Part shown: one piece after another, positions 7,463-52,032 of the stretch
Layout: the number at the start of each line of letters is the position of its first letter
How positions within the stretch are numbered: the first letter of the stretch is position 1
NCBI GenBank assembly: GCA_038245195.1
Contig: JBBRSU010000001.1
Span: forward strand, 64,121 to 128,120
Direction of reading: 5' to 3'
Origin: Candidatus Saccharimonadales bacterium
GTDB lineage: Bacteria; Patescibacteriota; Saccharimonadia; Saccharimonadales; UBA10212
DNA: 64,000 nt
The notes under the pieces: generated by a model
Told to the model about the DNA's origin: nothing
Database searches by the model: none
The model's input: only the letters and a program-made list of their open reading frames with translations
Translations under genes and position numbers: made by a program

Positions 7463-7582
7463 CAAGCTTGTGCACATTAACTAAAATCGCAATTTGCGGG
7501 CAGAGCCTCAGATATATCAATTGCACAGGGGTATATTTGCACCCTGGCCGTAAAACACGCGGAAAGGACACTTATTAAATAT

Positions 7583-9727
7583 ATGTCAGACATAATTAAC
7601 CCGTTTGGAAAAAAAATAATTAAGATTAGCACCGACTTTTGTGGTCGGGAGCTGAGTTTAGAAGTCGGTCGGCTGGGTTTTAGAACCAGTGCCTCGGTCT
7701 TAGCCCGCTATGGTGACACCGTAGTGCTCGGCACGGCTATGGTTAGCCCCGAAACCGTAAAAGGTATGGATTATTTCCCTCTAAGTATCGATTACGAGGA
7801 GAAGTTTTACGCCGCTGGTAAGATTAGTGGTAGCCGGTTTATTAAGCGTGAGGGCCGGCCATCCGATGAAGCGATTTTAATTGGCCGGCTAATTGACCGA
7901 CCTATCAGACCACTGTGGCCAAAGGGTTATCGCCATGAAGTGCAGGGCGTAGCCAGCGTTTTAAGCCTAGACCCCGAGTTTAGACCAGATGCCATTGCTA
8001 TGATTGCCATGAGCACCGCCTTTATGCTCACCGGCGTGCCATTTGACGGTCCAATCGCCAGTGTTAGGGTTGGCCTAGAAGCTGGCAAACCCAAAGCCTT
8101 TATGAGCCTGGCTGGTTACGACGAAGGCGAGCTTGATTTGGTAGTTGCTGGTACCAAAGACGCCATTATGATGGTGGAAGCCGGTGCTAACGAAGTTTCT
8201 GAAGATGTAATTATCGAAGCCTTAGCTTTTGCTCAAGAGGCAATTCAGCCAGCTATCGATTTACAGAATCAGTTGGTTGAAAAAGTTGGCGTAACCAAAC
8301 AAACCTTCGAGCTATTACTGCCTAGTGAAGATATTATCAAGTCAGTTGAACAGTGGACCAAAGGTAAGTTGGGCAAAGGTCTGCGAGCACCTTACCCAGA
8401 GCGTAATGACCTTGTGGCTGATTTACGCGTTAAAATGCACGAGCATTTCGAAAAAGAACTGGGCGAAACCGAGTTTGCCGAGCTTAAATCGGTTTACAAT
8501 GAAGCTTTCGAAATGGCCATCTTTAAGGATGTTCGCGAAGGCATCCTTGGTGAAGAAGTTCGACCCGATGGTCGAAAAACTACCGAAATTAGGCAGTTAT
8601 CGAGCCAAACCGGCTTGTTACCACGGGCCCATGGCTCAAGCATATTCACCCGAGGCGTTACCCAGGCTTTAAACATTGTTACGCTGGCACCGCTTAGCTA
8701 TTCCCAGATGGTAGATACCATGGAGCGCGAAGGCGAACGCCGATTTATGCATCATTACAACGCCCCCGGCTATACCGTTGGTGAAGTCCGACGCTTAGGT
8801 TCACCGGGACGCCGAGAAATCGGCCACGGCTACCTGGCCGAGCGGGCTCTTAGTGCAGTTTTGCCAGCCGAAGCCGACTTTCCGTACGCTATGCGCTCAG
8901 TAACCGAGATAATGAGCCAGAATGGTTCTACCAGCATGGCAGCCACTTGTTCAGCCTGCATGGCCTTAATGGACGCTGGCGTGCCCCTAAAAGCCCCAGT
9001 TTCTGGAATTGCTATGGGTTTGATGACCGATGGTAAGAAGTTTGTTATTCTATCGGATATTGCCGATGCCGAAGACTTCGCCGGCGATATGGACTTTAAA
9101 GTGGCCGGCACGGCTAAAGGGATTACGGCTTTACAGATGGATATGAAAGTCCACGGTTTACCGGTTGAAATTCTCAAAAAAGCCTTGATGCAGGGCAAAG
9201 CTGGCCGGGCCGAGATTTTAGAACACATGCTAAGCGTTATTCCTGTAAGTAATAAAGACCTCAGCCCTTATGCACCAAGAGTCGAAGCTATCACCATTAA
9301 CCCCGAGAAAATTCGAGAAGTAATTGGTAAGGGCGGTGAAACTATCAATAAGATTATTGCCGAGACCGGTGCTGAAATTGACATTAAAGACGACGGCACT
9401 GTAATGATTGCTAGCCCCGATAAGACCAGCATTGATGCGGCTATTTTATACATTCGAAACTTAACAGCCGAACCAGAAGTTGGTAAGATATACGAAGATT
9501 GCCGTGTGGTCAGTGTCCTGGATTTCGGTGCATTTGTGGAAATAATGCCGGGTAAGGAAGGACTGGTCCACGTTAGTGAAATGAAAGACGAACGAGTGGA
9601 AAAACCTAGCGATGTAGTTAAAGAAGGCGATAAAGTTACCGTTAAGTTGGTAGCGATTGATGATCGCGGCCGGTTACAGCTCTCCATGAAAGCCGCCGCT
9701 CGCGAACAAAACGGAGGAAAAGTTTAA
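7583..9727 (+). CDS. pnp: polynucleotide phosphorylase
   Basis: Two RNase PH domains, FAGDMDFKVAGT motif, KH domain (GKGGETINKI) and S1 domain (GKIYEDCRVVSVLDFGAFVEI). Confidence 0.97.
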   Translation: MSDIINPFGKKIIKISTDFCGRELSLEVGRLGFRTSASVLARYGDTVVLGTAMVSPETVKGMDYFPLSIDYEEKFYAAGKISGSRFIKREGRPSDEAILIGRLIDRPIRPLWPKGYRHEVQGVASVLSLDPEFRPDAIAMIAMSTAFMLTGVPFDGPIASVRVGLEAGKPKAFMSLAGYDEGELDLVVAGTKDAIMMVEAGANEVSEDVIIEALAFAQEAIQPAIDLQNQLVEKVGVTKQTFELLLPSEDIIKSVEQWTKGKLGKGLRAPYPERNDLVADLRVKMHEHFEKELGETEFAELKSVYNEAFEMAIFKDVREGILGEEVRPDGRKTTEIRQLSSQTGLLPRAHGSSIFTRGVTQALNIVTLAPLSYSQMVDTMEREGERRFMHHYNAPGYTVGEVRRLGSPGRREIGHGYLAERALSAVLPAEADFPYAMRSVTEIMSQNGSTSMAATCSACMALMDAGVPLKAPVSGIAMGLMTDGKKFVILSDIADAEDFAGDMDFKVAGTAKGITALQMDMKVHGLPVEILKKALMQGKAGRAEILEHMLSVIPVSNKDLSPYAPRVEAITINPEKIREVIGKGGETINKIIAETGAEIDIKDDGTVMIASPDKTSIDAAILYIRNLTAEPEVGKIYEDCRVVSVLDFGAFVEIMPGKEGLVHVSEMKDERVEKPSDVVKEGDKVTVKLVAIDDRGRLQLSMKAAAREQNGGKV

Positions 9728-20300: not shown

Positions 20301-21009
20301 ACTAGATGTAGCTTTGGCGAAACGGGGATTGGCGACTAGCCGTAGCCAAGCCGAAAATTATATTAAACTAGGAAAAGCTAGTGTTAATGGCATAATACTT
20401 AACAAGTCAAGTATTATGGTTGGCGATGATGACAAGCTTGCGATACAACAGGACGTTCAGTATGTTAGCCGGGCTGCACTAAAGCTAGCCAGTGTGGCCG
20501 ACAAGTTTGAACTCAATTTTAAAACCAAAATCGTTTTAGATGTTGGTAGTAGCACCGGCGGCTTTAGTGATTTTGCACTCAGGCATGGTGCCAAAAAAAT
20601 TATTGCAGTAGATGTTGGTACTGATCAGCTACACCCAAGTTTGCGTACAAACCCCCTAATTGAGCTACACGAGAAAACCGACATCAGGCAGTTTAGCTCA
20701 ACTCAAACAATCGATATAGTGCTAATAGACGTCAGCTTCATAAGCCTTCGACAAATTTTGCCGGCGGTGATTAAACTATCAAATGATTCAACTCAAATAA
20801 TTGCTATGTTAAAACCACAATTCGAAGCCGGTACTAACGACATCAACAAGGGAATTATCAAAAATGATTCAATCCGGCGGCAAATTATGAAGGACTTCGA
20901 AACCTGGGCTAGCCGACAGTTTTTAGTCAAAAATAAAGCCGACAGCCAGGTGACCGGGGCCAAGGGTAATCGCGAAAAATTCTATTTGCTGAAGCGGATT
21001 AAAGCTTAA
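20290..21009 (+). CDS. tlyA: TlyA-family rRNA 2'-O-methyltransferase
   Basis: N-terminal S4 domain (RLDVALAKRGLATSRSQAENYIKLGKASVNG) and SAM-binding motif LDVGSSTGGFSDFAL. Confidence 0.9.
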   Translation: MKTRLDVALAKRGLATSRSQAENYIKLGKASVNGIILNKSSIMVGDDDKLAIQQDVQYVSRAALKLASVADKFELNFKTKIVLDVGSSTGGFSDFALRHGAKKIIAVDVGTDQLHPSLRTNPLIELHEKTDIRQFSSTQTIDIVLIDVSFISLRQILPAVIKLSNDSTQIIAMLKPQFEAGTNDINKGIIKNDSIRRQIMKDFETWASRQFLVKNKADSQVTGAKGNREKFYLLKRIKA

Positions 21010-21014
21010 GATTA

Positions 21015-21043
21015 TTGACTTCTAAGGAGTTACGTGCTAATTT
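21015..21043 (+). promoter_or_regulatory. candidate promoter giving a ~190-nt leader for the Rpf-like gene
   Basis: TTGACT (21015-21020), 17-nt spacer, TAATTT (21038-21043). Confidence 0.3.
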
Positions 21044-21237
21044 ACAGGCACGGTCGCCAGACCGGTGTGAACATATGTCTGTCAGAAAGTAAGTTTACTT
21101 GCACCACTCTGATGGGCTCACACATAGAGATTTTTCGCTGGCTTCGGCTATGCGGCTATACAATCTCTCAACCTGGTGATTAAGACCACAAACCCGCTTA
21201 TAAGGGTTTGCGAACCTCGATATGAAAGGAGACGAGC

Positions 21238-21924
21238 TTGACTGCTCGGATTAGCCTAATCTTGGCGCTGTCTATCGTGATTTTTGCGGCGACGGCCCAA
21301 GTCTCCAAAGCCACCGCCGCGACGGCGGCCACCGCTTGCGGCCACCAAGCCGCATACAGCCATAAGGGCCAGGCTCTTAGGAGTTTGAGTTCTGTAAAGA
21401 GTACCAAGCTTCACCGGTTTTGCACAAAGTTCGTAGAACTACGTACAAAAGCCAAGACCATCAAGCACCAACGCTTGCTGGTCGCCCCCCGCTACAAGTA
21501 CTGCTGGAAAGTACCCGATAAGAAATGGCGGGCCAGCGTTTGTAGGGCTCGGGCCAAGCTGAGGCGGATTCTAACTAAGGATTTGCCCTGGCTGGACCAA
21601 CGCATCAAGGCCCTTCTGCCCCAACCCAGATTCCCTAAGTGGCTGTTAGATGCCTTCATATGCATCCACAACCACGAGGGAGCCTGGAACTCCAAGACCG
21701 GTAACGGTTATGACGGAGGCCTGCAAATGGATGCTACTTTCCAGGTTCAATATGGACCAGAGTTCGTCCATAGGTGGGGGTCAGCTGACAAATGGCCTAT
21801 CTGGGCCCAGATGACGGCTGCAATTCGAGCCTATACCGGCTGGGTTGGACCAGATCCACGGACTCGTACAGCCCGTGGCTTTGGACCCTGGCCGAATACT
21901 GCACATTCCTGCCGCCTCATCTAA
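21238..21924 (+). CDS. secreted Rpf-like (resuscitation-promoting-factor-type) transglycosylase-domain protein
   Basis: TTG start with AAGGAG 7 nt upstream, and a signal peptide. ICIHNHEGAWNSKTGNGYDGGLQMD...RGFGPWPNTAHSC aligns by eye with the Rpf core CESGGNW..NTGNG.YGGLQ...GPGAWP.C. Confidence 0.72.
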   Translation: MTARISLILALSIVIFAATAQVSKATAATAATACGHQAAYSHKGQALRSLSSVKSTKLHRFCTKFVELRTKAKTIKHQRLLVAPRYKYCWKVPDKKWRASVCRARAKLRRILTKDLPWLDQRIKALLPQPRFPKWLLDAFICIHNHEGAWNSKTGNGYDGGLQMDATFQVQYGPEFVHRWGSADKWPIWAQMTAAIRAYTGWVGPDPRTRTARGFGPWPNTAHSCRLI

Positions 21925-22017
21925 GCAAATATCGAGATCCACTGGGGACGGGTGCGCGGAAATATCCAGCGCACTCGTCCCACGGTTATGGCGACCGTAA
22001 ACCTATAAAAATTTACT

Positions 22018-22665
22018 TTATAAAAAGGCTTGTAAAGCCGGCAAATCCTTTAGCACAATGTACGATTTGCGATTACTAATTAGGCCCTTACGCTCCAAGG
22101 CAGCAATTTCCCGGCTGGCGGTTTCGCGACTAGCATTTATGGAACTGGCGATATCTTGATGGCGCAAGGGCACTTCAATGACAGTGCCGTCTTCAGTTTC
22201 GTTACCGAAGCGGTTAGCCATAGTTAGCAGAAATGAAATCAATCGCTCTCTAACGGTACGATATTCTAAGTTTAAAATTCTCTCCGAATGAATCCGATAC
22301 ATCTCAGTAACCATATCCAGGATAGGAGCCAGTGCACTAAGGTGACTATGTAGGTAGTCGAGGTAGACCTCTTGTCGGATACGCCAAACGACCGACGTAT
22401 CCATGGCTTGATAAATAATATCTCTCTCTTGGTTGGTCAATGCCCAAATTAGCGGGAAAATCTCTTTATGTTTACGGATAATGAGCAGGTTTTCTTCACC
22501 ATATTTACTGATGTTAAAGGCCTTAACTAAGCCCTCTTCTAAATAAAAAACGGCGCTAGGCGCCTCTCCTGGCCGGATTATATACTCACCTTTCTTATAG
22601 GTGAGTCGCGTGCCGCTCCTGAACAACCCCACCAGCGCGGCCGTTTGTTTATCGCTCGCCAGCAT
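22018..22665 (-). CDS. Crp/Fnr-family transcriptional regulator
   Basis: N-terminal cNMP-binding-like barrel (VFYLEEGLVKAF) and C-terminal HTH (RHQDIASSINASRETASREIAALERKGLI). Confidence 0.9.
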   Translation of the reverse strand: MLASDKQTAALVGLFRSGTRLTYKKGEYIIRPGEAPSAVFYLEEGLVKAFNISKYGEENLLIIRKHKEIFPLIWALTNQERDIIYQAMDTSVVWRIRQEVYLDYLHSHLSALAPILDMVTEMYRIHSERILNLEYRTVRERLISFLLTMANRFGNETEDGTVIEVPLRHQDIASSINASRETASREIAALERKGLISNRKSYIVLKDLPALQAFL

Positions 22666-40237: not shown

Positions 40238-41101
40238 ATGAACCCAGCTAGTCAACCAACTACCAACACGCCTGGCCCTCAGCCAGTTTATTCTGGTGAG
40301 GATTTTGTACCAGGTACAGTTAATGCACCCAATGCACCAGGTATAGTCCCCCCACAGCAATCTATTACCAACCCTAACAGTACCCAAAACGCCCTTCAGA
40401 TTAGTGAAATACGCGACGGCATAGTGATTATGAACGACGGCAGTTTTAGAGCAGTAGTAATGTGTAAGTCCATTAATTTCGATTTAATGAGCCCCCAGGA
40501 ACGTGAAGCCGTAGAGTTTAGCTACCAGGGCTTCCTAAACTCCCTATACTTCCCAATCCAAATTTTTGTAAGAAGCCAAAAAGTCGATATGCGTCCCTAC
40601 CTGGAAAAACTCGATAAAATCCGGACTGGCCAGGATAACATGTTGCTGGGTTTGCTTATGGAAGACTACATCGCATTCCTGGCTGACATCGTCCAGCAAA
40701 CAAACATTATGGATAAGAAGTTTTACATAGTTATAAAATTCCCAGATGTTGAAGTTGATGTGCGTAAAGCCTTAAAACAAAGCACCAGTTTCTTTACCGG
40801 CTTAGGCGAGCTATTTAGCTCCGGCAAAACCGCACATGTAACAATCGATGAGTCTACCTTAGAAAAAGCCAAAACCGAGCTTCGTAACCGGGTCCAGGCT
40901 GTTATGCAGGGCCTGGCTCAGTGCGGAGTACAAAGTTTGCCGTTGGATACCGAGGAGTTAATTGAGCTTTACTACGATGCCTACAACCCCGATACCGCCA
41001 CTCGGCAACAGATTAAAGACTTTAAAGACTTAACTGCACCGGTGATTTCAAAGGGCGTGGGCCCAGCACCTCAGCCTAATTTAAATGGAGGCCCAAGCTA
41101 G
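40238..41101 (+). CDS. VirB4 N-terminal-domain-like protein (separate ORF)
   Basis: ISEIRDGIVIMNDGSFRAVVMCKSINFDLMSPQEREAVEFSYQGFLNSLYFPIQIFVRSQKVDMRPYLEKL resembles the first ~200 aa of monoderm VirB4/TcpF/Orf16-type ATPases. Its stop TAG shares one nt with the GTG start of the ATPase. Confidence 0.5.
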   Translation: MNPASQPTTNTPGPQPVYSGEDFVPGTVNAPNAPGIVPPQQSITNPNSTQNALQISEIRDGIVIMNDGSFRAVVMCKSINFDLMSPQEREAVEFSYQGFLNSLYFPIQIFVRSQKVDMRPYLEKLDKIRTGQDNMLLGLLMEDYIAFLADIVQQTNIMDKKFYIVIKFPDVEVDVRKALKQSTSFFTGLGELFSSGKTAHVTIDESTLEKAKTELRNRVQAVMQGLAQCGVQSLPLDTEELIELYYDAYNPDTATRQQIKDFKDLTAPVISKGVGPAPQPNLNGGPS

Positions 41102-43005
41102 TGGCACTACCATTTGGTAAAAAAAATCCGGCACCGATTGATCCGATAGTCATGGAGAAGCAAGAGGTTGCGGCCGCGTTTGCCAAGGGGGTGACTGCAC
41201 TACGCGATTTTATTGCACCAAGCTCGCTACAATTTGACGGTAACTTCTTCCATCTAGGCACCCGCTATGCCAGGACCTACTATGTTTACGGCTACCCCCG
41301 CCAGCTATACACCGGCTGGTTATCGGGAATGGTTAACTTAGACGAAGTAATTGATTTATCAATGATTGTCCAGCCGGTTGATAGCCAAGTGGTACTTAAT
41401 AATTTACGCAAAAAAGTCAGCCAGCTGGAGGCCGGTATCCAGATTAACTCCGAAAAAGGCAAAGTACGCGACCCCGGTATGCAGGCCGCCGTGCAAGACG
41501 CTGAAGAACTACGCGACAAATTGCAGGTCGGCGAAGAGCGGTTTTTCCGCTTTGGTTTATATTTTACAATTTACGGTAATTCTTTGGAGGAGCTGGAGTT
41601 TATCAGCCATAAAGTTGAGAGTATGCTGGGCCAACAACTGGTTTATTCCAAGCCGGCCAGCTCCCAGCAAGAACAAGGCTTATCTAGTACAGTCCCTCAG
41701 TTTATGGACCAGCTACAGATTTACCGAAACATGAATACCGGTGCGATATCTACCACCTTTCCATTCACATCGGCCGATTTGACCCAAGACAACGGTATTT
41801 TATACGGCATTAATATGCATAACTCCGGTTTGGTTATTTTTGATAGATTTAGCCTAGAAAACGGCAACAGTGTGGTGTTCGCCAAGTCTGGTGCCGGCAA
41901 AAGCTTTACCGTAAAACTAGAAGCCCTGCGGTCAATGATGTTCGGCACTGAGGTATTTATCATCGACCCCGAAAACGAGTACCAAAAAATGTGCGAGGCC
42001 GTGGGTGGCGCCTATGTCCGGCTGAGCTTAAACTCGTCCACCAGAATAAACCCCTTCGATCTACCCCAAGTAATCGATAACGACGAAGCCGACAACGCAC
42101 TCCGTTCAAACCTAATAACACTTCACGGATTGCTTCGCCTGATGATGGGCGGTGCCCAGGCCCAAATGCTCCAAGGTGGGGTTACCACTATGCCAGCACT
42201 GAACCCGGCCGAAGAAGCCGACTTAGATGCTGCTTTAATTGAAACTTACGCTAAAGCCGGTATTACCAACGACCCACTTACCCACGGCTCAACTCCTCCA
42301 ACCATTAGCGACCTATACGACACGCTGCTTCATATGGGTGGCACCGGCCCACAGCTAGCCCAACGTTTGCGTAAGTATACTTCAGGAACATTTGCGGGCA
42401 TCTTCAGCCAGCAAAGCAATGTGAATGTGAATAACCCAATGGTAGTATTCAATATTCGAGACCTTGAGGATGAACTACGACCCGTAGCAATGTATATTGT
42501 GCTGAATCATATTTGGAATCGAACTAAGATCGATAAAAAACGGCGTATGTTAATCGTCGATGAAGCCTGGCAACTAATGCGCTATGAAGACAGTGCCAAC
42601 TTTATGTTTAGTATTGCGAAGCGGGCCAGGAAATATAACTTAGGCTTAACTACCATCACCCAAGACGTCGAAGATTTTATGGCCTCGCGGATGGGTAGGG
42701 CAATTGTGGCTAATGCCAGTATGCAATTCTTATTAAAACAATCGCCGTCAGCCGTTGATGTACTATCTGATGTGTTTAAGCTAACCAGCGAAGAGAAGAA
42801 ACGCCTCAGCCAATTCCCGGTTGGCCAAGGGTTGTTCTTTGCTGGCCAAAACCATGTGCACATTCAGGTTATCGCCAGCCCCACCGAAAACGAGCTGATC
42901 GCAACAAACCCCTCCCCTACGAAACCAGCACTGCAGGGCGAAGTTAATTTCCAGTCACAGTCGACCTCCGTTACGACACCGCCTTCTCAACAAGGTGCTG
43001 TATAG
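41101..43005 (+). CDS. virB4: VirB4-family T4SS ATPase
   Basis: YARTYYVYGYPRQLYTGWLSGM, Walker A KSGAGKSF (about 41881-41910), Walker B MLIVDEAW (about 42547-42570) and a TTITQDVEDF sensor-like motif. Confidence 0.88.
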   Translation: MALPFGKKNPAPIDPIVMEKQEVAAAFAKGVTALRDFIAPSSLQFDGNFFHLGTRYARTYYVYGYPRQLYTGWLSGMVNLDEVIDLSMIVQPVDSQVVLNNLRKKVSQLEAGIQINSEKGKVRDPGMQAAVQDAEELRDKLQVGEERFFRFGLYFTIYGNSLEELEFISHKVESMLGQQLVYSKPASSQQEQGLSSTVPQFMDQLQIYRNMNTGAISTTFPFTSADLTQDNGILYGINMHNSGLVIFDRFSLENGNSVVFAKSGAGKSFTVKLEALRSMMFGTEVFIIDPENEYQKMCEAVGGAYVRLSLNSSTRINPFDLPQVIDNDEADNALRSNLITLHGLLRLMMGGAQAQMLQGGVTTMPALNPAEEADLDAALIETYAKAGITNDPLTHGSTPPTISDLYDTLLHMGGTGPQLAQRLRKYTSGTFAGIFSQQSNVNVNNPMVVFNIRDLEDELRPVAMYIVLNHIWNRTKIDKKRRMLIVDEAWQLMRYEDSANFMFSIAKRARKYNLGLTTITQDVEDFMASRMGRAIVANASMQFLLKQSPSAVDVLSDVFKLTSEEKKRLSQFPVGQGLFFAGQNHVHIQVIASPTENELIATNPSPTKPALQGEVNFQSQSTSVTTPPSQQGAV

Positions 43006-50652: not shown

Positions 50653-52032
50653 TTATGCATATAGTCGTTCCTTCAACTCATTAACATATTGGCGGATTGG
50701 GCCATCATAGCTAATTTCTCGCTGGATTTTTTCAATCGAATGGATGGCGGTGGTGTGGTCTTTTCGGCCCAGCTCATGGGCAATTTTAGGAAACGACAAA
50801 TGTAGCTCTGAGCGCAGCATATACATAGCGATTTGGCGGGGGACAACAATATCTTTATCGCGTTTAGGGCCCAATATGTCGTCTATCGAGATATGAAAGT
50901 GCTTGGCGGTTCGTTCAATAATAACCCTGGAACTTATATGCTTAGGCCGGCCACGGGTGCCTTCGAACATTGTATTAGCGATTAATATGTCAGGTTCTAC
51001 ACCCCGCATCTCACAAAAAGCTATTAGCTGATTTAGGGCACCCTCAAGCTCACGAATGTTACTTTGAATTCTAGTTGCTAAAAATTCGATTACGTCTTGG
51101 GGCAGCTGAATCTCTTGGCCATTAGCTTTTATCTGTAAAATTGCACAGCGTGTCTCAAAATCAGGCGTCTGCATATCGATAGTCATGCCCCAAGCGAACC
51201 GGCTGCGTAGCCTGTCCTCTAGGGTTGGGATATCTTTGGGGGGCTTGTCGCTACTCATAATCAACTGTTTGTTGCCCTGGTAGAGGGTATTAAAAGTGTG
51301 GAAAAACTCTTCTTGCACCCGCTCTTTACCAGCCAAAAATTGCACATCATCCACAATCAGCACATCGGCGTTGCGATAAAAACTGGCAAAGTCACTAGTG
51401 TTCTTTTTAATCCTTAGCGAATCAACAAACTCCTGGACAAACTGCTCGGTTGAAGCATAAACAATTCGGGCCTCGGGCCGGCTAGCCAAAACTGCGTTAC
51501 CAACCGCTTGGATGAGATGGGTTTTGCCAATGCCCACACCGCCATACAAAAATAAAGGGTTATATTTGGTGCCCGGCTTAACTGATATGGCTTGGCAGGC
51601 TGCAAACGCTAACTCGTTGCCAGCCCCCACCACAAAGTTTTCAAAAGTATAACGCTGGTTTAAGCCCTGGCGATAAGAATGGCTAATATTAGCGATATTG
51701 GCTCGGGGTTTTGGCCGGGCGTCCAGCTGAAGCCCGCCGCCGGCATATGCAGAGACCGGTTCATTAGCTTTGTTTTGGGCAGCTATGCCGGTATGAATCT
51801 TATACTCGACTCGCTCGGGCTTAATACCATTTTTGGCCAAAACTTGTAGCACTAAATCATTAAATTTACGTTCCAGCTGGTTTTTTACAAAGATATTTGG
51901 CACGCCAACGACTATGACATCGTCTTTTTGGCGGACCAACTCAGTATTTTTGAACCATGTAATATAGTTGCCGTGCGACACGGAAAGTTCAATCTCGCCC
52001 AATACTGCCTGCCACAGGCCGGTCGCTTGCAT
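50653..52032 (-). CDS. dnaA: chromosomal replication initiator DnaA
   Basis: AAA+ Walker A GGVGIGKTHL, Walker B LIVDDVQFL, and the C-terminal DNA-binding domain (HTTAIHSIEKI). Confidence 0.97.
   Translation of the reverse strand: MQATGLWQAVLGEIELSVSHGNYITWFKNTELVRQKDDVIVVGVPNIFVKNQLERKFNDLVLQVLAKNGIKPERVEYKIHTGIAAQNKANEPVSAYAGGGLQLDARPKPRANIANISHSYRQGLNQRYTFENFVVGAGNELAFAACQAISVKPGTKYNPLFLYGGVGIGKTHLIQAVGNAVLASRPEARIVYASTEQFVQEFVDSLRIKKNTSDFASFYRNADVLIVDDVQFLAGKERVQEEFFHTFNTLYQGNKQLIMSSDKPPKDIPTLEDRLRSRFAWGMTIDMQTPDFETRCAILQIKANGQEIQLPQDVIEFLATRIQSNIRELEGALNQLIAFCEMRGVEPDILIANTMFEGTRGRPKHISSRVIIERTAKHFHISIDDILGPKRDKDIVVPRQIAMYMLRSELHLSFPKIAHELGRKDHTTAIHSIEKIQREISYDGPIRQYVNELKERLYA

Follow-up and report, generated by a model that had tools for sequence, protein, structure and literature searches.

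A stretch of 64,000 nt from the Candidatus Saccharimonadales bacterium contig JBBRSU010000001.1 (positions 64,121 to 128,120; hereafter the window) includes, at 21238–21924 on the plus strand, a gene whose 228-aa product is related to the resuscitation-promoting factors (Rpf) of Actinobacteria. The open reading frame (ORF) begins with a TTG start codon (21238–21240), preceded at a gap of 6 nt by the Shine-Dalgarno sequence AAGGAG (21226–21231, plus strand), which confirms the start proposed in the initial annotation. The string GGAGACGA followed by the start codon is conserved across the orthologous loci, in which either TTG or ATG occupies the aligned position. The genes flanking this locus are rpsF-ssb-rpsR, efp, tlyA, crp and ychF.

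Three parts can be distinguished in the protein. Residues 1 to about 27 (21238–21318, plus strand), delimited by sequence inspection and hydropathy, comprise a putative signal peptide and an Ala/Thr-rich linker: Arg4 is followed by a 15-residue hydrophobic stretch (mean Kyte-Doolittle value of 2.6) and then by AQVSKA. This N-terminus looks like a Sec signal peptide with a presumed cleavage site, and an n-h-c pattern ending in AxA is seen on inspection in the protein as well as in its homologues, in keeping with the signal peptide predicted earlier. Processing as a lipoprotein was rejected because no lipobox precedes Cys34 (N or V occupies position −1 in some orthologues); it is also unlikely in view of the distance of this residue, invariant in orthologues though it is, from the hydrophobic core (about 12 residues). 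Cleavage by signal peptidase I appears favoured. The second part is a basic domain, predicted by AlphaFold to be helical (residues 28–135; 21319–21642, plus strand), with a pI of 11.1, 27 K or R among its 108 residues and four cysteines (Cys34, Cys62, Cys89 and Cys102), as its earlier description as basic and Cys-containing had it. Helices are predicted at residues 57–77 and 95–126 with a predicted local distance difference test (pLDDT) value of about 88–94. When the query and 116 relatives were scanned, this N-domain matched no Pfam family. Six orthologues have Cys89 together with a Cys at about position 102, and six have neither; a Cys89–Cys102 disulfide may be formed.

The third part, defined by profile and fold, is the catalytic domain related to PF06737 (residues 136–228 plus the stop codon; 21643–21924, plus strand). 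It includes Cys142 (codon 21661–21663), Glu147 (21676–21678) and Cys225 (21910–21912), and the motifs GGLQMD (residues 160–165) and PWPNT (residues 217–221). A 10-aa loop insertion, WVGPDPRTRT (residues 202–211; 21841–21870, plus strand), precedes RGFGPWP and is specific to the window protein; it is missing from almost all relatives, shorter inserts being present in P0015 and in a few phage copies.

The assignment of this domain to the Rpf type is supported because homology at the level of the family profile and fold agree, although the query by itself misses the Pfam threshold. A search of 5.8 billion proteins yielded a set of 116 relatives, 78 of which match PF06737 (E ≤ 1e-3, best 2e-11) and no other Pfam family. 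Residues C142, E147, GGLQM (160–164), F168, W186, Q191, W218, T221 and C225 are invariant in the 116 sequences. Searched against PDB, the 116-member profile matches RpfB (3eo5, 5e27 and 1xsf; E-values of 3e-7 to 7e-7, best 3.2e-7, profile positions 113–187), RpfE (4e-4) and RpfC (0.012), and no non-Rpf protein was matched. The RpfB match spans the whole catalytic domain, and the profile hidden Markov model (HMM) aligns Glu147 onto the catalytic Glu in the CE motif of RpfB, preceding GGNW, a residue which we take to be Glu292. As a single sequence, the query reaches NCBIfam RpfC with E = 0.029 and, in a phmmer search, RpfB from PDB with E = 0.65.

The AlphaFold2 model (mean pLDDT of 83.8) exceeds a pLDDT of 90 throughout the C-domain. 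When it was compared to PDB with Foldseek, the best 15 matches were all RpfB, RpfC or RpfE, with probabilities of 0.96–1.00, and the Rpf catalytic-domain structures were matched with a target-normalised template modelling score of 0.62–0.81 and a root-mean-square deviation (rmsd) of 1.7–2.5 Å; E-values were modest (0.016–1.1), as obtained for a small domain. No Pfam match to the family 1 lytic transglycosylases (SLT) was obtained for the query or for any of the 116 relatives. Among the PHROGs, relatives match phrog_29757 ("transglycosylase") weakly, and the query matches nothing. Taken from alignment and model together, the domain can be predicted with high confidence to be Rpf-type, that is, to have the lysozyme/SLT-like Rpf fold. 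Of the core with a catalytic Glu that the initial annotation had aligned by eye, the family profile, the position of Glu147 and the fold are all in favour; its identification as a canonical Rpf does not stand, the cysteines being displaced and the query remaining below the PF06737 threshold.

The gene is better placed, by its sequence, in a separate subfamily. When 1.84 billion cluster representatives were searched with the profile, 499 clusters scored E ≤ 1e-30, and relaxing the limit to E ≤ 1e-3 raised the number to no more than 2178; the subfamily is sizeable yet well separated. With the classical Rpf (Micrococcus luteus Rpf; Mycobacterium tuberculosis RpfA-E; PF06737 "Transglycosylase-like") it shares a small helical fold with an aligned catalytic Glu, the NTGNGYYGGLQ core motif, secretion (here predicted) and two conserved cysteines, a feature already described for Rpf (PMC1084345). 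The spacing of these cysteines is different: the first precedes the Glu by five positions (CIHxHE), where classical Rpf has the two side by side (CE), and the last comes four residues later (PWPNTARxC versus AWPVC), so that in the profile alignment Cys142 and Cys225 each lie four residues outward of the RpfB cysteines. A Cys142–Cys225 disulfide, if kept, would be displaced at either end by roughly one turn of helix. Specific to the subfamily are GGLQMD..F and the conserved W186, Q191 and PWPNT. The N-domain lacks the LysM, DUF348 or G5 modules of classical Rpf, and the subfamily occurs in Thermoleophilia, phages and Saccharibacteria rather than in the class Actinomycetes. We did not find this subfamily (CIHxHEGAWN...GGLQMD...PWPNTARxC) described in the searchable literature.

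Two further systems are of interest for comparison. Rpf has been described as confined to Actinobacteria, with the addition of a mycobacteriophage tape-measure protein (PMC1084345), and in TM4 and Barnyard, which infect Actinobacteria, the motif represents an Rpf-fold domain encoded by a phage (PMC1084345), as in some members of the present subfamily. The Barnyard domain was recovered as a weak fold match in BFVD. In those phages, however, the domain lies inside a virion protein of more than 1000 aa, whereas the window and the related phage contigs encode a free protein of about 170–230 aa with a signal peptide. SLT enzymes of family 1 (Slt70, EmtA) also have a catalytic Glu at a helix end, a G/S-x-W-N-like turn and a GLxQ motif, and the similarity of Rpf to EmtA has been pointed out (PMC1084345). 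They differ in that the domain studied here is half as large, and MltF appears far down the fold list (E > 2, probability at most 0.18, rmsd of about 12 Å).

The main reservoirs of the subfamily are chromosomes of Thermoleophilia (Actinomycetota) and uncultured phages. A scan of GTDB with one genome per species confirmed 582 of 599 candidate stretches, that is, at least 582 relatives. Among the best 80, 77 are titled Thermoleophilia, Gaiellales, Gaiellaceae, Actinomycetes or unclassified Actinomycetota; these 77 copies show 50–60% identity in the catalytic domain only, in DNA of 63–76% GC. One of the 80 (L044) is labelled Candidatus Saccharibacteria and one Burkholderiales. The actinobacterial affinity suggested earlier is borne out to this extent, but the relatives that share the N-domain are phage-borne and not chromosomal actinobacterial. 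Sampled Thermoleophilia copies have ordinary chromosomal surroundings: one is near gatA/gatB, and two others, from genomes syntenic with each other, have F420 genes on one side and a GGDEF-GAF-HD protein on the other. The sole match in a cultured organism is a 145-aa copy of Miltoncostaea oceani (Thermoleophilia), annotated as "transglycosylase family protein" and located on an 816-kb plasmid (NZ_CP064357.1, 212093–212530; L256, 3812–4249). Hypothetical, HNH-endonuclease, MazG-like and DUF1653 genes surround it, and the region looks mobile or prophage-derived. The family member labelled Burkholderiales lies on a 7.5-kb contig (L023, JAICUZ010000120.1) of a metagenome-assembled genome, and its GC content of 70.5% is like that of the Thermoleophilia loci; the contig was probably misbinned, and the copy would then not be proteobacterial.

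Among uncultured viral contigs in IMG/VR there are 151 relatives, of 42–72% GC. On a phage contig with portal and large and small terminase genes (L088), the homologue is located beside the terminase on the opposite strand. On another (L091), which also encodes a primase-helicase and tail fibres, it lies at 8028–8546 between DNA polymerase and thymidylate synthase, and therein forms part of a replication module, neither of a lysis cassette nor of a tail protein. Homologues are found among replication and nucleotide-metabolism genes, a SNF2 helicase among them, also in L093 (about 7469–8305) and L095 (about 7890–8264). This placement hints at a role other than lysis in phages, for instance in acting on dormant hosts. 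In L095, a viral contig of 46% GC, the reading frame of the homologue extends without interruption from a stop at about 7884 and offers no ATG, GTG or TTG ahead of the catalytic domain, the earliest start listed (8076) falling inside GGLQMD. Translation may begin at a non-canonical codon, or the sequencing or assembly may be at fault. A tblastn search of the isolated phages in INPHARED detected no homologue.

Within the Saccharibacteria, the gene is found directly downstream of tlyA in at least 12 diverged lineages. Full-length relatives (P0002–P0010, L044, L170 and L172) are 36–55% identical to the window protein, and all come directly after tlyA. Upstream of tlyA are efp and a 2′-5′ RNA-ligase-like gene; downstream, where the contig reaches that far, are a convergent crp, a bPH_3 gene and ychF. 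In P0045 (L253), which is more distantly related, the order is tlyA-gene-ychF, with no crp following. Flanking housekeeping proteins are 65–84% identical across loci (EF-P, TlyA and Crp of L044 are 67–69% identical to those of the window), compared with 35–54% for the Rpf-like protein, in which the N-domain (29–49%) diverges more than the C-domain (50–64%). Such comparisons indicate a fast-evolving, predicted secreted protein, inherited vertically within one Saccharibacteria clade at a fixed locus. In the window, the Crp/Fnr-family regulator (22018–22665, minus strand; cNMP_binding and HTH_Crp_2 domains, NCBIfam Crp/Fnr families) is present beside the gene as had been stated; it is, however, a conserved convergent neighbour (Crp is 67–83% identical across orthologous loci) that is not co-transcribed with the Rpf-like gene. 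Between the two convergent genes, a 13-bp GC-rich hairpin was read from the sequence at 21945–21981, assigned to neither strand. It is likely a bidirectional terminator, which the consensus scanner did not flag because it has no T-run. In L171, a hairpin of different sequence occupies the same position 3′ of the Rpf-like gene.

The 228-nt spacer between tlyA and the gene is conserved at the DNA level among lineages whose proteins share only 36–54% identity. It begins with a putative sigma-70-type promoter (21015–21043, plus strand), composed of a −35 box TTGACT (21015–21020) and a −10 box TAATTT (21038–21043) separated by 17 nt, with TG at 21035–21036. In 11 Saccharibacteria loci, the tlyA stop is immediately followed by the pattern TTGAC(A/T)-N17-TGnTAnnnT; the promoter was not called by the consensus scanner because its −10 box matches at only three of six positions. 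Transcription would start near 21050.

Downstream of the promoter, covariation and a covariance model delimit a conserved structured 5′ leader RNA of about 190 nt (21039–21237, plus strand). A long-range helix P1 (21052–21060/21173–21181) closes a junction of a three-segment P2 arm (P2, 21065–21070/21118–21123; P2a, 21077–21086/21108–21117; P2b, 21089–21093/21098–21102) and a P3 arm (P3, 21126–21132/21162–21168; P3a, 21135–21142/21147–21155), and is followed by a hairpin, P4 (21189–21195/21204–21210), and by a conserved stretch ACCUCGA...AAGGAGACGA. RNAalifold applied to 11 independent leaders gave 36 pairs, 24 of them with compensatory changes. The proportion of paired cells was 91.8%, against 75.9% in shuffles, none of 500 shuffles reaching the observed value, and the covariation score was 0.60, against 0.29 in shuffles and 0.06–0.13 in slid controls. 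The same structure is obtained as the minimum-free-energy fold of the window leader (−68.5 kcal/mol, z = −3.6). A covariance model was then built from the 11 leaders with L253 held out; it scores the window at 172.6 bits and the held-out leader at 100 bits (E = 4e-24), where 32 of the 36 pairs are intact and seven differ on both sides from the commonest pair.

The other leaders are located in L044 (1246–1486), L082 (2627–2834), L083 (5801–6003), L086 (5736–5965), L170 (2678–2877), L172 (1184–1394), L249 (2802–3003), L250 (2242–2456), L251 (1737–1946), L252 (1287–1471) and L253 (574–773). In about 2.3 Mb of loci searched, the leader was found solely 5′ of the 12 Saccharibacteria orthologues, and the model returned nothing in about 80 Thermoleophilia, about 80 viral and about 75 other metagenome loci, or in the rest of the window. 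Of the 4227 Rfam families, ydaO included, none matched the window at the gathering threshold, none matched at E ≤ 5 in 20950–22100, and none matched four orthologous loci at E ≤ 1. The ydaO (cyclic-di-AMP) riboswitch and other Rfam families were hence rejected as the identity of the leader. In Streptomyces, ydaO controls rpfA (PMC10117811), and in Actinobacteria it precedes rpfA and other wall hydrolases (PMC10117811); in both cases a long structured 5′ leader stands before an Rpf-type muralytic gene. The present leader differs by its three-way junction and terminal hairpin and by the lack of a U-tract terminator.

Other readings of the leader were also considered. A Crp-binding site, GTGTGA...TCACAC, was rejected because the half-sites lie about 50 nt apart and covary as an RNA helix (GGTCCGA/TCGGACC, GATGCGA/TCGCATC, GCGCGA/TCGCGC), and an intrinsic terminator was rejected because no U-tract follows P4. 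A local P1 hairpin (GGTC/GACC) is paired to 76%, compared with 86–100% for the long-range P1; it is a possible alternative conformer, which the centroid fold displays. The P2 arm of the window also includes a five-codon mini-ORF (21075–21092, ATG TCT GTC AGA AAG TAA). Strings of ATG, four codons and a stop occur in six of the 12 leaders (e.g., L170, L250, L086, L252 and L253) with no ribosome-binding site, and the ATG is missing in the others; the mini-ORF is probably a by-product of the conservation of RNA structure. On comparative grounds, the leader is a promising candidate for a cis-regulatory RNA not described before.

Taking these results together, the explanation that we consider probable is that the gene encodes a secreted peptidoglycan glycosidase of Rpf fold, anciently acquired and vertically kept downstream of tlyA. 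It would have entered an ancestor of a probably soil-dwelling Saccharibacteria clade, with the pool of actinobacterial phages or mobile genes as its most likely source, and inheritance would have been vertical since. Transcription would proceed from the conserved TTGAC-N17-TGnTAnnnT promoter, and the leader of about 190 nt, with its three-way junction and the hairpin ahead of the ribosome-binding site, may gate expression in response to a signal. After translation from the TTG codon, the protein would be exported by Sec and its signal peptide cleaved. The C-terminal domain, whose homology to Rpf is established, is predicted to cleave the MurNAc-GlcNAc backbone with Glu147 as the catalytic acid, and a Cys142–Cys225 disulfide probably stabilises it. 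The very basic helical N-domain, presumably stapled by a disulfide, may serve to bring the enzyme to an anionic wall or a partner. The transcript would end at the 13-bp hairpin at 21945–21981.

Whether the wall of an actinobacterial host or that of the Saccharibacteria cell would be the target is a closely balanced matter. That the enzyme cuts the host wall or manipulates host dormancy, as the initial annotation envisaged, is speculative. On the host wall as the target, belief and doubt are nearly level, and this reading is suggested by the fast evolution of the N-domain, the patchy distribution and the actinobacterial ancestry. A housekeeping autolysin, acting on the producer's own peptidoglycan only (in growth, division or exit from starvation) and with no role towards the host, is a serious if somewhat doubtful candidate. 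It would fit the position of the gene among housekeeping genes (efp, tlyA and ychF) at a locus fixed in 12 lineages, the dedicated and conserved regulation represented by the leader, and the precedent of actinobacterial Rpfs, which remodel the wall of their producer under riboswitch control (PMC10117811). It fits less well with the apparent limitation of the gene, among the matches listed, to a subset of Saccharibacteria, so that it would not be a core wall enzyme, or with a protein that evolves much faster than its neighbours (29–49% identity in the N-domain), a behaviour commoner for surface and interaction proteins; neither point is decisive.

With regard to the origin of the gene, an HMM of the Saccharibacteria N-domain matches Saccharibacteria loci at 1e-22 to 1e-38, the distant P0045 at about 3e-16 and, weakly (1e-5 to 4e-8), the phage-type proteins P0012, P0016, P0014 and P0020, which derive from phage-like contigs of 64–67% GC. 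No match was obtained in the sampled Thermoleophilia chromosomal copies; outside the clade, the N-domain is common only to the phage-type proteins. A full-length neighbour-joining tree (201 columns) recovers the syntenic Saccharibacteria as a group with the phage-type group next to it, with bootstraps of 23–76% at the relevant nodes. A domain-only tree (89 columns) gives no useful support, and bootstraps are mostly below 50% in both trees. A single ancient acquisition from the pool of actinobacterial phages or mobile genes is judged the likeliest course, and a rather likely one, on the basis of four observations: the actinobacterial character of the superfamily (PMC1084345), the several architectures present in Thermoleophilia, the small number of Saccharibacteria with the gene among the matches listed, and the natural competence of Saccharibacteria, which live as epibionts on Actinobacteria (PMC11665869). 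On these observations, transfer would have run from that pool into Saccharibacteria.

The opposite course, in which the family would be ancestral in Patescibacteria and exported to Thermoleophilia and phages, or the observed distribution would be one of sampling bias, is improbable. It draws on trees whose lack of useful support leaves direction unproven, on counts that rest on at least 582 GTDB relatives and at least about 600 metagenome candidates, and on a gradient of N-domain similarity among unplaced metagenomic proteins. Against it stand the actinobacterial character of the wider PF06737 superfamily (PMC1084345), the several architectures that Thermoleophilia carry in core chromosomal contexts, and the number of Saccharibacteria-type sequences found (about 12–20, compared with 499 family clusters at E ≤ 1e-30).

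The gene had been noted to look richer in GC than its neighbours, and the computed values show it: GC is 0.555, against 0.449 for the window, GC at third codon positions (GC3) is 0.611, and both are the highest among the 56 window ORFs (z = 3.1 and 3.3), none of which has a poorer codon fit. As genomes of the donor type have a GC content of 68–75%, one might envisage that this particular genome received the gene recently from an actinobacterial host of high GC. An excess in GC3 over every flanking gene was found, however, in all 11 Saccharibacteria loci compared (window, L044, L082, L083, L086, L170, L172 and L249–L252), amounting to +0.04 to +0.21 over the highest-GC3 flank (e.g., 0.83 versus flanks of 0.58–0.69 in L082, and 0.67 versus flanks of 0.48–0.50 in L250). 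Synteny and the same leader are shared by 12 lineages whose housekeeping proteins are only 65–84% identical, and no mobile-element genes adjoin the gene. A donor GC signature would have decayed by now, because synonymous sites should be saturated at such divergence; the excess must be maintained by something else and is not a relic of transfer. Recent transfer is thus refuted for this locus. The host-derived gene of the initial annotation is plausible as an ancient gain from the Actinomycetota and phage pool, and not as a recent import. That the gene is a remnant phage lysin or prophage cargo still within a mobile element is scarcely credible either: the closest non-Saccharibacteria relatives of the same architecture do sit on phage-like contigs and the family is common in IMG/VR, but no phage gene lies within 10 kb, housekeeping genes make up the flanks, the window contains no prophage, the locus is stable across lineages, and the phage homologues belong to replication modules and not to lysis cassettes.

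Several points have to be set against the explanation of an anciently acquired, Rpf-type glycosidase. As a single sequence, the query scores 18.1 bits with PF06737 (cut-off 27, E = 0.0045), over residues 147–176 only, and the muralytic function of the product is a prediction from sequence and model. The taxonomic proportions are those of the best 80 of at least 582 relatives, with at least about 600 metagenome candidates besides. Nesting of the Saccharibacteria proteins inside an actinobacterial or phage radiation has no useful bootstrap in either tree, and the excess in GC3, since it persists across deeply diverged orthologues, is unusable as evidence of transfer.

A bolder extension of this explanation, which we regard as unlikely, is that soil Saccharibacteria have domesticated an actinobacterial or phage "wake-up" muralytic factor, placed under an undescribed riboswitch-like RNA, and secrete it either to breach the wall of actinobacterial hosts, possibly Thermoleophilia such as Gaiellales, or to promote the growth of these hosts. 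If this were true, the gene would be a host-range marker and the epibiont's tool for manipulating host dormancy.

Elsewhere in the window, the segment 34666–47519 encodes a VirB4/TraG-type ATPase (41101–43005) with very large proteins without a Pfam domain (1009, 472 and 1059 aa) on its flanks, and resembles type IV secretion clusters described for Patescibacteria. DnaA (dnaA, 50653–52032, minus strand), FtsK, PNPase and RNase J are also encoded. This gene content and synteny with L044, a 3-kb contig of a metagenome-assembled genome labelled Candidatus Saccharibacteria, make a Saccharibacteria assignment of the window probable. The position of dnaA makes it likely that replication starts in the window or close to it.

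To our knowledge, almost nothing is known about gene regulation in the phylum in which the leader occurs, and the leader represents a well-supported candidate for a new class of cis-regulatory RNA. The subfamily, with about 500 clusters at 50% identity, is probably the Rpf equivalent of a major class of soil Actinobacteria. No paper linking Saccharibacteria or Patescibacteria with Rpf was found in the literature searched, and a fixed Rpf-type gene in Patescibacteria extends a range that had been described as confined to Actinobacteria (PMC1084345). Patescibacteria in culture grow on actinobacterial hosts and are capable of natural DNA uptake (PMC11665869). The gene is a concrete candidate for how an epibiont handles the Gram-positive wall or the dormancy of its host, and its actinobacterial and phage affinities could help to predict the hosts of uncultured soil Saccharibacteria.

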